This document shows positions 15,999 to 22,153 of a stretch of DNA of 64,000 bases, piece after piece (the first letter of the stretch is position 1; every line of letters starts with the position of its first letter). Source of the DNA: an uncultured Candidatus Peribacteria bacterium (GTDB lineage: Bacteria; Patescibacteriota; Gracilibacteria; GCA-2401425; JAJOLG01). A program made the translations under genes and the position numbers. The DNA is taken from the NCBI GenBank assembly GCA_964456745.1, contig CAYWBW010000005.1, positions 12,749-76,748 on the forward strand, given 5' to 3'. The notes beneath the pieces are model-generated. The model was not told the DNA's origin. It worked only from the letters and a program-made list of their open reading frames with translations, and did no database searches.

Positions 15999-16715
15999 AT
16001 GACAGAGCATAATCAAAATCAATGGCAAATTATAAAAGTGATTGAACGAGCTGGTTGAAATAATATTATTTCTAAAAAAATGGTTGAATTATGATCCAAG
16101 ATTCAATTTTTATTCGAAAACAAAGAAGAGCTTAAAGAAAAATTGACTGAATTTAATACTAAAATATACATATTAGCAAATGAATGTTTTGCTGTTATTT
16201 CTACCAGAAAATCAATTATCTTAACATTGCAATCCGCTGCACTTGTATGAACTATTGTAAATGTTTTAGTAAATTTATTTGGTCCATCAAGCATCTACCC
16301 ATTCTTAGCACCAATGATAGTTGCACCCTATAATCAATATCGTACTTTTCGCTTGAGAAAAAGAAGCGCAACAGTAAGTGAAACAGCACCTAGAAAAAAT
16401 AAAGACTTTGTATTACATATAGATAAAGAAAGTTGATTATTTGTTTTAGCAAATCCATGAATTAGACAAAAGTGAGCTTTTTTTCTTACTGACAATAATT
16501 TTATTAATAACATACTTCACGATACAATATTAAAACATCACCATGCTTGAGATGATAAATTTTTTATTAAACGCAAGTGAAATGTTTATATTTTTAGATT
16601 TTGAGAAGAAGAAGCAAACAGTGAAATAATTAGTTTATACTGATATGATGTAACAGACTTTATAGATCCAAACATTGCTAATAGTATTGATGATAAATGA
16701 GAAGAATTATGTTAA
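15999..16715 (+). CDS. hypothetical protein with one central hydrophobic segment
   Basis: 238 aa, open only with TGA=Gly. It has a TM-like segment SIILTLQSAALVGTIVNVLVNLFGPSSIYPFLAPMIVAP. I recognise no family. Confidence 0.5.
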
Positions 16716-16821
16716 TTTAGATGTAAAAGATAATGTCTGCTAATAATTTTTATCTGTAAGATATATATTGCTATGTTTTCTGATTTATGTAAAATTAATT
16801 AGAAAATAAATTAAATTTAAA

Positions 16822-19800
16822 ATGAATGATGATAATTTTAAATTAGACACTTTTGTAAATACTCAAGATACTTTAGAAAACTCATCTGATGATGATACAT
16901 GATCTGATAAAGACCAAGAAGAAATCATGACTTGTCTTAATGAAATTATTGACCAGCGAAAAACAAGTATTGAAGCTGCAATAAAACTAGATTGAAAAAT
17001 TGATACTAAAAATAGATTAGCATGTATGCGAGCATCAGTATTTTTAAAGAAGCTTGCTACAGAAGATGGCAGAAAAAAAATTACTGATGATATATCAAAT
17101 CAATTAAATGATTTATTTGATGGTCTTGTCCCTTTGCATGTTATCCAAACAAGAGTAGATAATACATATAAACATTTTAAGGATGAAATCGACCGTAGAC
17201 AAGCTAAGAAATTAAATACTGATCCAAATGAAACAAATCCATTTATTTTGCCAGAAATTCTTAGCAAACAAGATGCTTTAAAACAAAGAAGTGATATTCT
17301 AAATCTGTCTCTATCTTCCCTTTATAAAATGAATAATAACTTTGACACTATTCTCCTGAGAGATAGCATTACTCCTTATCCTCATCAGATAAGAAAAATT
17401 GATCTTCTTTTAAAATGAGCTATGAAAGTTCCAGATATAGATTGAATTGATATAGCAACCGATATTTGTCCAACTCGTTGAGGTAAAACTTTTATGGAAA
17501 TGACCTTGGCTCGTTTGGCACAATCAGATAATCTAAGTACTCCAGTTCTATTTTTAACTTATTCTAATCCAATTCTCACAGGTGAAAAAGGTGCTTTAAA
17601 TGAAGCATTAAGATTTTTCCCTCGTGGTGATATTTGAATTGTAAATAAAGACTTTAAGCAGCATGGCAGGTTAATTACCATGGTAAATTTTGCTATGCCA
17701 AAAGTTTCAGAAAATTTTTTGACTGAATTTGTAAAAACATGTAATGGCAGACTACCTATTATTATAATAGATGAAGGTGACTACTTTCAATCTGAAAGAT
17801 CAAATCATGTTTTAAATGAACTTAAGCATGCATTTAAGCATCCAATTATTTTTGCCCTAAGTGCTACTGAAGAAGTAAATAATAGAAATCTTTGAGATAG
17901 ATCATTGATTACTGATAAGATGACTGTTGTTGAAATAACTAGATTAAAATTAATCAAACAAGTACTTGGTTTTTATGTAGATGTATGATTAGACTTAACA
18001 GCTGATAAATTGTCTAATACACAATATGGTAGAGAATTACGATTTGACACACTAAATATACTAGAAAGAGATGCCCTGATACATCGTCCAGTATCATTAT
18101 ATAAAGAGAAATTAATGGGTGAGAAATCCATTTTTATTTGTAATCAAGTAGTTCATGCTCAAGCTATAGCAAGGGAGTTACGAAAAATAGGTATTAACGC
18201 AGAATGCATAAGCAAAGACAGAAATCTTGATAAAACTCTAGTTTATGAAAAATCAACTGAATATGATGATTTAATTAGTCGTTACATTTCATGAGATTTA
18301 ACAGTAATTACAGGTTGCAATGTACTGTGAAGAGGAATAACACTTTGAGGATGAACTAAAAATGTAATTATGTGCTGAGTTACAGAAAGTCTTACCAGAT
18401 TGTATCATGCTATTGCTCGCGGTCTTGATCTAGACAAAATTATTGATATTTTAAGAATTTTTCAATTTTTGCCCAATATTCAAGTAAAAGGCTATAAACC
18501 AGCACTTATTGAAGATATTTTTACAGATGGCATTGTACCAACAGACTTATTACATAATTCCATTGGTAGCATTACTGAAGCAGAAGAAATACTTAGAAAA
18601 ACAAATCAAAAAAATCCTGATTATGTTGCCATGACATGAGTTCAACTACCAAATTATGAAGAAAAGAACTGAATATTTATTTCATTTCTTACACGACAAG
18701 AAATAAGAGAAACAGTTAACACAGAAGATTTATCAAATAAACAGAAAATTCTTATTAAGTATTTTAATCCCGTTATTGATAGTATTCTTGATGATGATTT
18801 ATCTATAGATAACATAGGTTATGCAAAACCATGATTATCTACTCCAGTTAATTTTAAATCAGATGACGGAAAAGCTTCTCTAGATGTTAAATTTGCATGG
18901 ATTGTCAGACATGTTCTTATTATTATCGCATGAGTACATCCAATTGTAGCTGATAATAATCGCTCTATTGCGTTTCAGGTTATAAAAATGTGGTATAAAA
19001 ATGGTCGTCCTACAAAAGAAAAGGTTATGAAAATGATAAAAGAAAAAAATGAAGATACAGCTAATTGAAAAATTATAGCAGCTAATTTTGACGATCTTAT
19101 AACTCAATTTGAATCAAATGCTGTTTCTGATCTGCCACTAAGTACAAAAAATCCTTCATCAGATTCTAAAGCTAATACTATTCACGAATGAGAAAATTAT
19201 ACATTTTCATGGTCAATGTTCAATAGATGATACCTTTCGTTTCTTACAGGAAAGAATTCATCTGAATTAGAATTATATCCAGGCTTAGCACTACAAATGG
19301 TACTGCAAAGGAAAAATACATGACAAAATCCTGTTGAGATTGCAAATAAAGCTTTTGAGAAAGAAAATCAAAAATTTAGATTCCTTTCTTCTGAGGAAAG
19401 ATTTGAATTAATAACAAATAATATAAAGGCTATTGTGAAACAATTTGAAAAAGAATGATGAAAAAGTAATTTTAAAACAACAAATAATTGATATAAAATT
19501 ACATTTATACTTAAAGATAAAAATATAATAATAAGTAAAGGTGAATTGTGTTATGAATGTGTTGAAATGTATGCACCTTGATATAGAACAAAAGTACATA
19601 ATAATTTTCCTAGTGTAGCCAACCTTGTTACAGAATTATTAGCTGATGGTAAAAAGGTTAACAAAAATATTATCGACAGACTAATTCAAAATGAAAAAAA
19701 TAAAAGAGAGGCACTAAAGCTTGTAAGGTTAAATCTTAAAGATTATTTTGATGCATTTTATACTTCATTTCTTAAAGCTGCGAAGGCTGATAATATTAAA

Positions 19801-20547
19801 TTAGATAGTAAAAAATCTAGAGCCTTACAAGCTTCTATTTCTGTTAAATTGCCAGATAATAGACATGCAACAGTTGGAACAAGTTGGCATACATTTTCAA
19901 GACAGTATTGTTCTCAATACTTAAAGCTTCCATCATCATTAAATGATGTAATGCCAATTTGAGAAATTTTAAAATTGTGGAAACGAAAAAAAGAACCACC
20001 AACCGCAGAAATTTTAGAAGAACATATAAGACAAGAGGGTAGAAAAAAACTATTCCTAAAAACAATTGGTCTCTCTGGAATTATAATGGATAACTTTAGG
20101 GCAGTAAATTCAGCCTTACTAAGAGCACAAATGAAGCCATGAAATTTCGAAGCTAGATTTACATATTCAGGTATTAAATTTACTGCCACTGAAACAGAAA
20201 TTAAACTTGCTATATTACAAATATTTTTCAATTTACTAAGTCTTCGTTGACGCTCTAATCAACCTTGGGATAGAATATCAGATGATATTTTAGAATTATG
20301 GAGAGAGAAAAAAATACAGCCATTAAGAAGCGAGCTAATATGAATTTTGGGGAAATATAATTTCACACAATGAAAAACATTACTTAAAAAAGAGCTAATT
20401 GCATTAGAAGAAAGTGCAAATACGAATAATGACAATCACACACAGGAAACAACGACACAAAAATGATCAATAATAAAACCATTATCAAAAAAACAAAAAA
20501 AGAATGTGAGAAAAAAGAAAGCTGTTACGCAAGTAAGCGAAAAATAA
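16822..20547 (+). CDS. large SF2 (DEAD/DEAH-like, type III restriction Res-like) helicase with an uncharacterised ~650-aa C-terminal region
   Basis: 1241 aa. It joins the in-frame track ORFs 17026.., 17680.., 18010.. and 18400.. Helicase motifs: TPYPHQ, CPTRGGKT (I), IIIDEGDY (II), LSATEE (III), GCNVLGRGITL (V) and HAIARGLD (VI). The C-terminus holds three Trp-centred repeats and a Lys-rich tail. Stop is TAA at 20545-20547. Confidence 0.8.
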
Positions 20548-20631
20548 TTTTACATTATTGATTTTCTTTATTTTTCACCTGAAAAACATCATGATTAATT
20601 TCTAATATAATTCCATTTTAGAACTATGCTA

Positions 20632-21541: not shown

Positions 21542-21551
21542 CTAATTTAAA

Positions 21552-22076
21552 ATGAATAATCCAAATTTTGTAAATACAGCCATAGCAGGTATTGATAAAA
21601 TAAGATGGGAAAAAGAAAATACCACAGAAGATTCTGAAAAACTAAATTCTGATTTATACCAATTAATTTTTAAAGATAAAACAGATTTTATTATTCAACA
21701 AGTGAGAGAATGTATATTAGAAACAATTTCATCGAATATAAGCATTGCACGTATGTGAACACCTAACATGATAGAAAAAAATGTGAGAAACACTACATGT
21801 TACAAAACCTTGCTTTCTACACTTACTATTACAAAACAATTAGATATAGATACACACGATTTAATTGAAGCTTATTTTGATGATACAAATGAAATATTAG
21901 AAGAATTAAGAATTGTTTCATTTATTAACTTTGTTAAATTACATTATATCACAGGCAATGATATTGCAAATGTTGCTGAAATTTCTGATATATTATTTGC
22001 AAATTATAATGAATCATGAATTAGATCAAAAATTATTGAAAGATTAAAAACTAAACTTAATGTTGAATTAGAATAA
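21552..22076 (+). CDS. hypothetical protein
   Basis: 174 aa. It fuses track ORFs 21552.. and 21768.. across TGA codons. I recognise no family. It ends 1 nt before the tRNA. Confidence 0.55.
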
Positions 22077-22077
22077 A

Positions 22078-22153
22078 TGGAGCCACGACTCGGACTCGAA
22101 CCGAGGACCTACTGCTTACAAGGCAGTTGCTCTACCAACTGAGCTATAGTGGC
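22078..22153 (-). tRNA. tRNA-Thr (anticodon UGU)
   Basis: 76 nt with an encoded CCA. Acceptor GCCACTA/TCGTGGC (one mismatch), D arm GCTC-AGTTGGTA-GAGC, anticodon arm ACTGC-CTTGTAA-GCAGT, variable loop AGGTC, T arm CTCGG-TTCGAGT-CCGAG. Confidence 0.9.

Follow-up and report, generated by a model that had tools for sequence, protein, structure and literature searches.

A stand-alone SF2 helicase with a new tandem repeat domain, probably acquired horizontally by a Candidatus Peribacteria genome that reads UGA as glycine

The closest described counterparts of the motor protein discussed here are the DNA helicases of family PHROG 16, found in siphophages of Streptococcus, Lactococcus, Listeria and Mycobacterium, together with related plasmid-borne enzymes. 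These proteins possess a superfamily 2 (SF2) core of two RecA-like domains, with a ResIII-type N-lobe and a Helicase_C C-lobe; only that core is matched, and neither a linker nor a module array of the kind described below occurs in them. A second point of reference is provided by the tandem-repeat targeting arrays that are fused to enzymes, namely the TALE, PUF/PPR and HEAT-type arrays. Here we describe a gene that joins a core like that of the PHROG 16 helicases to an array of a new repeat domain, its product being two to three times as long as the core matched in the phage and plasmid proteins. The gene is encoded within a 64,000-nucleotide stretch of contig CAYWBW010000005.1 (the window) from an uncultured Candidatus Peribacteria bacterium that translates UGA as glycine. 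With a probability of roughly 0.55, it represents a horizontally acquired, maintained and stand-alone SF2 helicase with a new repeat array, and not one component of a four-gene system.

A preliminary description of this DNA had placed the gene, as an orphan helicase, at the center of a 6-kb block that it read as a defence island or a decayed mobile element. The four co-oriented genes of the block (g14, the helicase gene, g16 and g17) are located where that description put them, between divergent glycan genes (DegT/FemAB) and the 3' end of tRNA-Thr(UGU).

Under translation table 11, the region falls apart into short open reading frames (ORFs), the longest in the window spanning only 198 residues. 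Once UGA is translated, coding sequence is dense throughout the window and a frame of 1246 codons opens at 16810-20547. Genetic code 25, in which UGA specifies Gly and not Trp, applies here, because UGA occupies the Gly position of the helicase Walker A motif (CPTR-UGA-GKT), because GGN codons are nearly absent and UGA frequent in the window genes (13 UGA vs 2 GGN in g16, for example), and because the UGA columns of DegT align to Gly: across 24 such columns and 15 standard-code homologues, 211 of 360 cells contain Gly and a single one contains Trp. The preliminary description had evidently already applied this code, as the Trp residues of its motifs are genuine TGG codons. Across the 57 called genes, UGA accounts for 87% of Gly positions, and GGN is entirely absent from several of them; the reassigned codon has nearly supplanted the original four-codon Gly family of this genome, whose GC content is 26%. 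Code 25 is described for Gracilibacteria and Absconditabacteria in one account, which also reports standard-coded phages predicted to infect code-25 hosts (PMC10746230).

The helicase core, its relatives and the repeat array

Sequence comparison assigns the motor to a divergent SF2 core, predicted to be closest to the DEAD/DEAH helicases of phage and plasmid replication modules. PHROG 16 (‘DNA helicase’) matches residues 77-543 (E=4.9e-23), and the SF2 motifs quoted in the preliminary description are all found (Table 1). The Walker A and Walker B/DExx motifs of a RecA-like N-lobe are both present (CPTRGGKT and IIIDEGDY), and the motif I and II residues G221, K222, T223, D317, E318 and D320 are invariant across the helicase family. 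In the second lobe, the SAT of motif III and R533 are conserved, while the last Arg of motif VI is replaced (RGLD). Pfam Helicase_C (22.6 bits, cut-off 23.5) and ResIII (20.5 bits, cut-off 22.5) fall just short in the window protein and pass their cut-offs in two relatives, P0003 and P0004, presented below. The family profile matches RecA2 lobes only (DEAD-box, RecQ1 and UvrB, E-values from 3e-9 to 1e-3). A tblastn search with P0004 returned 201 phage and 12 plasmid records, all through the core only and at 24-25% identity; annotated as DEAD/DEAH box or DNA helicases, these are the nearest annotated relatives of the core, the phage ones belonging to siphophage replication modules. PADLOC, NCBIfam and PDB sequences contained no match to the window helicase.

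Identity as a DEAD-box RNA helicase was considered and rejected, given a motif II of DEGD, a motif VI of HAIARGLD and a merely Q-like ‘PYPHQ’. Pfam DEAD gave no match in the window helicase and remained under its cut-off in P0003 (E=0.012), and the NCBIfam DEAD-box equivalogs scored far under theirs. Fold comparison places the family no more precisely than among generic SF2 enzymes, because the core is poorly predicted in the full-length model of P0003 (overall predicted local distance difference test score, pLDDT, of 57): Foldseek matched XPB, SauUSI, BLM/RecQ, RadD and ISWI with E~1e-5 and through the core only. Structural agreement is best with XPB, RecQ/BLM, RadD and the SauUSI motor, and extends over ∼350-400 core residues of a model whose core reaches only pLDDT 57; the accessory domains that define them are unmatched in the family proteins. 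Outside the core, residues 1-185 match no Pfam or NCBIfam family, and the Lys-rich C-terminal end that had been noticed is indeed present.

An exhaustive phmmer search of 1.84 billion representatives with the tail recovered five proteins at E<=0.001, a lower bound on family size. These are a fragment of the same gene, the long proteins P0003 (1008 residues, E=1.5e-13) and P0004 (1130 residues, E=2.3e-9), whose C-terminal halves are matched, and the tandem-repeat-only proteins P0005 and P0006. P0003 is encoded in a Candidatus Gracilibacteria metagenome-assembled genome (JALWQU010000100.1) and P0004 in Logan SRR31643649. Both align end to end with the window protein at 25-29% identity, including the N-terminal region, every SF2 motif, the linker and the repeats. 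In an NCBI genome (GCA_964515815.1, locus L006), P0005 is preceded by an ORF with 26% identity to the window protein over 1011 residues (E=4e-81), and is probably the continuation of that ORF across an assembly gap. A further ORF, on a Candidatus Peribacteria contig (CAYXLW010000006.1, locus L008), shares 33% identity over the core and carries a different C-terminal module of ∼75 residues in three copies; by eye, this shorter module resembles the last ∼70 residues of P0003.

The helicase is therefore not the orphan it was taken to be, as four distant full-length relatives exist in addition to the tandem-repeat proteins. The complete architecture of the window protein (N-terminal region, SF2 core, linker and modules) recurs in P0003, P0004 and the L006 ORF. 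All relatives differ from it in being standard-coded, the number of modules varies, and the N-termini of P0004 and of the L006 and L008 ORFs are longer. By eye, these N-terminal extensions (P0004 1-340, L008 ORF 1-425, L006 ORF 1-60) resemble the helix-turn-helix of sigma-70 regions 2/4, e.g. ‘YFIRRFIEGKNASDI’; Pfam returned no such match, and no claim is made. The family is sparse, with two loci among 185,579 species genomes, and its two taxonomically labelled relatives belong to the Gracilibacteria and the Peribacteria, both within the Candidate Phyla Radiation (CPR). A scan of JGI metagenomes with the family alignment found no member, and word-indexed searching, whether with the full protein or with the family alignment, recovered nothing beyond the same gene in code-4 translation, the protein being of low complexity and AT-rich.

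Genomic neighborhoods differ from one relative to the next. P0003 adjoins the housekeeping gene BipA. The L006 helicase lies near DprA and MurJ, with a convergent tRNA-Thr(GGU) ∼1.1 kb downstream of the helicase array. P0004 is accompanied by a RelB-like protein, a Type IIG restriction-modification (R-M) enzyme, an integrase fragment and a tRNA-Lys. In L008 (3367-11968), the helicase follows a TOTE-system archaeo-eukaryotic primase (AEP)-helicase (PF22548, E=5e-89) and, by inspection, a RecQ-like gene. Two of these four neighborhoods are thus conflict or mobile-element settings (integrase, R-M, antitoxin, TOTE), which is suggestive. A 245-residue protein encoded between the genes of P0004 and of the Type IIG R-M enzyme (L003:3971-4708, - strand) contains a D…E-V-K pattern (‘DQIKIEVKASR’) that recalls PD-(D/E)xK nucleases; it has no Pfam match.

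The tail of the window protein had been credited with three Trp-centred motifs. All three are present, with Trp at residues 724, 1053 and 1160 encoded by true TGG codons, but they reflect four supported modules of ∼105 residues, and the third motif lies outside these. The Trp motif corresponds to the last helix of the module and recurs every 107-117 residues in the window protein and in its module-bearing relatives, within a skeleton of the form F..I...F(L) … (ISW)..F … (K/E)W..(T/K)G..P. A hidden Markov model (HMM) built from 20 modules of other proteins, none of them from the window, scores 101.7 bits on the window protein and resolves four domains (independent E-values, iE, from 1e-13 to 3e-7), compared with a maximum of 7.1 bits over 500 shuffled tails. 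Only three motifs had caught the eye because the Trp is no longer present in modules 2 and 3. The region around the third motif (residues 1076-1185) has the fitting spacing and aligns in register with the modules; the HMM scores ∼0 bits there, within the range of the shuffles, so that a fifth module is unsupported and is listed as a possible degenerate copy only.

AlphaFold2 modeling of two consecutive P0006 modules, from a 14-row alignment that included the modules of the window protein, gave a mean pLDDT of 86. Each module is predicted to fold as a helix, a beta-hairpin and four helices, and was modeled at pLDDT 75-88 in full-length P0003. Because the inter-module linker was modeled at low confidence, this suggests independently folding beads on flexible linkers and not a solenoid. 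Foldseek with the module model found nothing at E<=0.001 in the PDB (best E~1, TM 0.1-0.2) or in the viral library BFVD, and the module profile matches no Pfam family and no PDB sequence. Pfam XkdW was tried as the identity of the P0006 modules and discarded, as only one of 22 modules reaches E=0.07. Within the reach of the Pfam, PDB and BFVD comparisons, the ∼105-residue module is a new, previously undescribed domain. The supposed novelty of the helicase tail is thus borne out: it maps to no known accessory domain in these three resources and consists of an array of a new repeat domain.

The arrangement recalls the TALE, PUF/PPR and HEAT-type arrays in that repeated units of varying number (here three, four or at least eight) are attached to a catalytic domain. 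Unlike the 30-40-residue helical hairpins of those arrays, which pack into a solenoid, the module is ∼105 residues long, contains a beta-hairpin, is predicted to fold independently and is joined by flexible linkers. The module itself has no structural similarity to any entry of the PDB or BFVD.

Glycine codons and the origin of the helicase

The helicase gene is set apart by its Gly codons. It contains 31 UGA, 6 GGA, 20 GGT, 6 GGC and 1 GGG (48% UGA), compared with 1076 UGA among the 1237 Gly codons of the other 56 genes (87%; 161 GGN; Fisher p=1.3e-12). Expressed per gene, its UGA fraction of 0.48 lies 4.4 standard deviations from that of 46 other genes (0.864+-0.087). The anomaly is uniform along the gene, in core and modules alike, and recurs in no other long gene of the window (UvrA, 67 UGA / 14 GGN; FtsH, 45 / 4). 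Arg codons of the CGN type are also more frequent (28% vs 12% elsewhere, p=0.003) and, like Gly, shift only through first-position changes. The remaining synonymous families are host-like (rank 28 of 51). Family relatives contain no in-frame TGA and use 23-32 GGA vs 5-14 GGT per gene; the 31 UGA and 6 GGA of the window helicase, against 20 GGT, are what is expected of a GGA-rich gene after one-step GGA-to-UGA drift.

The adjacent genes lack this signature. The UGA/GGN ratios of g14 (11/2) and g16 (13/2) are native-like, as is the total over g14, g16 and g17 (26/6), and the GC content and third-position GC (GC3) of the block match those of its flanks. A compositional contrast between block and flanks, which the preliminary description had proposed to look for, is thus absent from GC and GC3; the helicase alone differs, in its Gly and Arg codons. 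Because the Gly codons of g14 and g16 are native, the block genes do not share a history with the helicase. Only the helicase looks foreign, and its gene-specific codon signature is strong evidence of import. Most simply, the helicase would be the sole import, derived from an AT-rich relative with the standard code or from a mobile element of such a relative, a direction and a vehicle that we infer.

The gene is also maintained. It occurs on nine contigs of this population, among them contigs from several SUTE22-1 samples and from a sequencing run made independently, and seven further places are listed with mostly the same neighboring genes. In three other spanning copies (two independent contigs), all four block genes are 100% identical to those of the window. 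The conclusion that the helicase is maintained in the population follows from an intact ORF of 1241 codons in a 26% GC genome, found in every assembled population copy and identical in the spanning ones.

Persistence in every assembled copy is also compatible with a housekeeping helicase for DNA repair or RNA metabolism that is specific to this lineage and was inherited vertically, with the Gly codons reflecting a gene-specific constraint. Both labelled relatives are CPR members of the Gracilibacteria/Peribacteria group, P0003 and the L006 member adjoin housekeeping genes (BipA; DprA and MurJ), and codon usage outside Gly is host-like, all of which is compatible with this explanation. However, a family with five matches among 1.84 billion representatives and two loci among 185,579 species genomes is very sparse for such a role, the helicase is absent near the anchor genes in two other code-25 genomes (L011 and L020, see below), the Gly anomaly is unique among the long genes of the window, and all other family members are in standard-code genomes. 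We regard vertical inheritance as quite unlikely.

Several observations weigh against the favored explanation of a horizontally acquired, stand-alone helicase with a recognition or tethering tail. Third-position usage is already host-like, so that an old import and an equally AT-rich donor cannot be separated. The family-alignment scan of IMG/VR viral contigs found no member and lends no support to a phage vehicle. Only two of the five family loci are taxonomically labelled, and the exhaustive search used a code-4 (Trp-for-Gly) translation as query, with lower sensitivity as a consequence and a family size that is to be read as a minimum. The last Arg of motif VI (RGxR in the family) is Arg in all four relatives and Asp in the window helicase, and this substitution may weaken its ATPase activity. 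Finally, module charge is mixed across the family, several modules of the relatives being acidic, which does not favor a simple role in nucleic-acid binding.

The surrounding block

Coordinates of the block, of the regions of the helicase and of the adjacent genes are collected in Table 1.

Table 1. Features of the four-gene block, of the helicase protein and of the adjoining tRNA and secretion-type genes (positions in the window).
Feature	Position	Strand	Description
g14	15999-16715	+	238 residues, function unassigned, central hydrophobic segment; gene call
Helicase gene	16822-20547	+	1241 residues under code 25; 31 UGA-Gly, 33 GGN-Gly
N-terminal region, residues 1-185	16822-17376	+	Acidic, helical, pI (isoelectric point) 4.8 by charge calculation; loosely common to family members in alignments
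SF2 helicase core, residues 186-545	17377-18456	+	PYPHQ, CPTRGGKT, DEGD, SAT, HAIARGLD
Post-core linker, residues 546-645	18457-18756	+	‘RIFQ..P...KPALIE’, family-conserved; Q548, P551 and L562 invariant in alignments
Module 1, residues 646-744	18757-19053	+	Ends in first Trp motif, VIKMWYKNGRP; iE=1.1e-13, 37.8 bits
Module 2, residues 752-850	19075-19371	+	Terminal Trp lost (…LQRKNTGQNP…); iE=3.6e-9, 23.3 bits
Module 3, residues 866-961	19417-19704	+	Terminal Trp lost (…ELLADGKKV…); iE=2.6e-7, 17.3 bits
Module 4, residues 965-1074	19714-20043	+	Ends in second Trp motif, EILKLWKRKKEPP; iE=1.8e-10, 27.5 bits
Possible degenerate fifth module, residues 1076-1185	20047-20376	+	Third Trp motif, DILELWREKKIQP, 107 residues past the second
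C-terminal tail, residues 1186-1241	20377-20544	+	Lys-rich, basic, pI 10; composition and charge
Promoter-like site TTGACA-16-TAAAAT	20632-20659	+	In the 145-bp helicase-g16 gap; 11/12 match
g16	20693-21541	+	282-residue class I S-adenosylmethionine (SAM)-dependent methyltransferase, UbiE/BioC-like small-molecule type; insertion after motif I
g17	21552-22076	+	174-residue Gly-poor protein, no significant family match
tRNA-Thr(UGU)	22078-22153	-	ARAGORN; 3' end towards the block, separated from the stop codon of g17 by 1 nt
g18 and g19	22236-23391	-	g18 TrsD/TraC-like (235 residues), g19 PrgI-like; type IV secretion system (T4SS)-type, flank the tRNA, outside the block

The three companions of the helicase show little sign of a common system. 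g14 has no significant match in Pfam, PADLOC, PHROG or NCBIfam and was found in same-species contigs only; g17 has no significant match in the same four collections. g16 is a class I SAM methyltransferase, as had been proposed: Methyltransf_11 matches with E=6.9e-10, above the curated cut-off, and Methyltransf_25 with E=1.3e-9. Its Pfam matches are limited to Methyltransf_11/25/31 and Ubie_methyltran, its NCBIfam scores for MenG, UbiE, BioC and ArsM are far under threshold, and it matches neither a DNA methyltransferase family (Pfam, NCBIfam) nor a PDB sequence. In PADLOC-DB v2, the helicase, g14 and g17 gave no match, and the g16 match to mad2 (E=1.6e-5, residues 146-209, 64 residues) is a generic one to the methyltransferase fold; a known defence system is thus not recognized in the block. 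No nuclease domain was detected in the four block proteins with Pfam or NCBIfam, and an R-M-type system is not supported. Homologues of g14, g16 and g17 were found beside none of the other helicases of the family.

The near-consensus promoter TTGACA-16-TAAAAT reported for the gap between the helicase and g16 is present. It is weak evidence of a promoter, because such sites are not enriched in the window over shuffled sequence (53 vs 46.8+-6.8). Separately, the start of the helicase gene (16814-16839) and that of g17 (21544-21569) have in common 26 nt at 85% identity (AATTTAAAATGAAT…AATTTT), the proteins starting with MNDDNF and MNNPNF; this likeness may be due to a common translation-start context, or to chance.

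A layout in which a helicase, a methyltransferase and unassigned proteins lie at a tRNA is typical of defence islands, and the four genes could be imagined as a novel anti-phage defence system comprising a motor, a modifying methyltransferase and two accessory proteins. Family members elsewhere adjoin a Type IIG R-M enzyme, a RelB-like protein and a TOTE AEP-helicase, and the variability of the repeat tails, including the different module of L008, recalls fast-evolving conflict proteins. We nevertheless hold such a system to be highly improbable. PADLOC is empty but for the partial fold match of g16 to mad2, g16 itself is of the UbiE/BioC/MenG type and of no DNA methyltransferase family, and no nuclease or other effector domain was detected. 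Furthermore, none of g14, g16 and g17 recurs beside the helicase elsewhere, their codon history differs from that of the helicase, and g16 is separated from it by the 145-bp gap with the promoter-like site.

Synteny shows that the block is not part of an ancient core. In relatives with 62% and 54% DegT identity (L010 and L019), left-flank synteny is kept. Both contigs, from sample ERZ24794645, end at the block junction, 73 and 291 bp upstream of DegT (L010:1-73 and L019:1-291), which may mark a variable or repeated region at which assembly broke off. L020, a more distant code-25 relative, keeps g6, the Mur ligase gene, DegT, FemAB and FtsH in colinear order within ∼7 kb, interrupted by nothing but a tRNA-Arg, and the ∼10-kb stretch corresponding to 15.9-25.7 kb of the window, with the block, tRNA-Thr, the T4SS genes, PrsW and an RmlD-like gene, is missing. 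Because L020 keeps these anchor genes colinear without that stretch, the block is not ancient core synteny. Another code-25 relative, L011, lacks the block as well. A syntenic core block in all relatives, combined with a tail matching a known housekeeping domain, had been named as the outcome that would overturn the first interpretation, and neither was observed.

Absence of the block between the same anchor genes in L020 is also compatible with a decayed element, integrated as a whole at the 3' end of tRNA-Thr, in which the helicase would be replicative, the other genes cargo, and the integrase and attachment (att) sites lost. In favor of such an element are the position of the block directly at the tRNA 3' end, the resemblance of the helicase core to those of phage and plasmid replication modules, and the ends of the two nearest relatives' contigs, 73 and 291 bp upstream of DegT. 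Similar settings occur in the family: P0004 is in an island with tRNA-Lys, an integrase and R-M, and the L006 helicase array also has a convergent tRNA-Thr ∼1.1 kb downstream. Against this, the gap in L020 is not specific to the block, as it takes in the tRNA-Thr, the T4SS genes, PrsW and the RmlD-like gene. The native Gly codons of g14 and g16 (26 UGA / 6 GGN together with g17) indicate a history different from that of the helicase, and block GC equals that of the flanks. As already noted in the preliminary description, no integrase family occurs among the block or flanking proteins, and the tRNA 3' segment is not duplicated: neither a 16- nor a 25-nt segment recurs in the window with up to three mismatches, and the tRNA belongs to no repeat family. 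Nor does the block contain any further gene for replication, recombination or structural proteins. A tRNA-integrated island is thus not supported by an integrase or by a direct repeat, and decay of one such element is unlikely. Of the initial reading as a defence island or decayed element, the foreign, mobile-element-like character of the helicase stands, and the grouping of the four genes into one system does not.

The tRNA-Thr(UGU) itself is, over 70 nt (22078-22147), 90-94% identical to tRNA genes of organisms with 68-74% GC (L014-L018). An exact search of metagenomes with a tRNA-Thr segment, aimed at syntenic loci, was abandoned, as it returned only such unrelated organisms with a 94%-identical tRNA. 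On the far side of the tRNA, g18 had been taken for a truncated T4SS gene. It spans nearly the whole TrsD/TraD profile (NCBIfam TrsD positions 26-200 of 201, E=5.8e-8; VirB4 N-terminal region, E=1.3e-13), g19 matches PrgI (E=1.6e-4), and the identical genes of L009/L012 carry PF26593, over a whole protein, and PF12666. By its sequence, g18 is probably a complete small protein. T4SS-type genes are scattered in the window, with a pilin gene at 3153-3506 (- strand, E=2.5e-10) ∼19 kb from g18/g19; scanning of window proteins revealed no VirB4-type ATPase.

Two further features lie elsewhere in the window. An 874-residue multi-pass membrane protein (39401-42025, - strand) with 16 Trp and no Pfam match departs furthest of all window genes in its synonymous codon usage (G/df 2.65, p=1e-7), further than the helicase when Gly is left out. 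At ∼52000-60000, GC falls to 0.18-0.22 within a long glycan-biosynthesis cluster encoding glycosyltransferases, a Polysacc_synt flippase, a UDP-glucose dehydrogenase and an epimerase, which may be a variable surface-polysaccharide locus.

A model of the helicase and what it means

Taken as a horizontally acquired, stand-alone protein, the central gene is predicted to encode an ATP-driven nucleic-acid motor of the phage/plasmid SF2 helicase lineage, in which the core is followed by a conserved linker, four (possibly five) tandem modules and a Lys-rich tail. Horizontal transfer, out of a relative with the standard code or a mobile element of that relative, would have brought it into the UGA=Gly genome. 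After arrival, most GGA codons would have drifted to UGA by one base change that is synonymous in the host, with GGT and GGC, which need two changes, lagging behind. Modules 3 and 4, the possible fifth region and the tail of the window protein have pI values of 9.5-10, and the mostly basic array and tail could hold on to nucleic acid or a partner protein at several points, as a multivalent tether that delivers the motor to its target. A role in mobile-element conflict or in DNA transactions would be consistent with this architecture. g14, g16 and g17 would be resident, lineage-specific genes that form no system with the helicase.

A more far-reaching proposal, which we consider distinctly improbable, is that the modules are a new class of recognition domain, whose arrays, differing in length and sequence, read a nucleic-acid or protein target and steer a phage-derived SF2 motor, as part of a mobile conflict or DNA-surveillance system in CPR bacteria that crosses the genetic-code boundary. 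If true, this would be a previously unrecognized system able to enter UGA-recoded hosts.

The locus also corrects the view of a tRNA-adjacent gene cluster as a ‘defence island’, in a case without co-occurrence, shared history or membership in defence families. The module itself, confidently folding in prediction, new, and found in tandem behind an SF2 motor and possibly alone, offers a concrete target within the CPR ‘dark matter’. In recoded genomes, the UGA fraction of Gly codons can flag recent imports even where GC and third-position usage are uninformative. The helicase thereby provides a clean natural example of a standard-code gene assimilated by a UGA=Gly genome, and its Gly codons an ‘amelioration clock’ based on codon reassignment.

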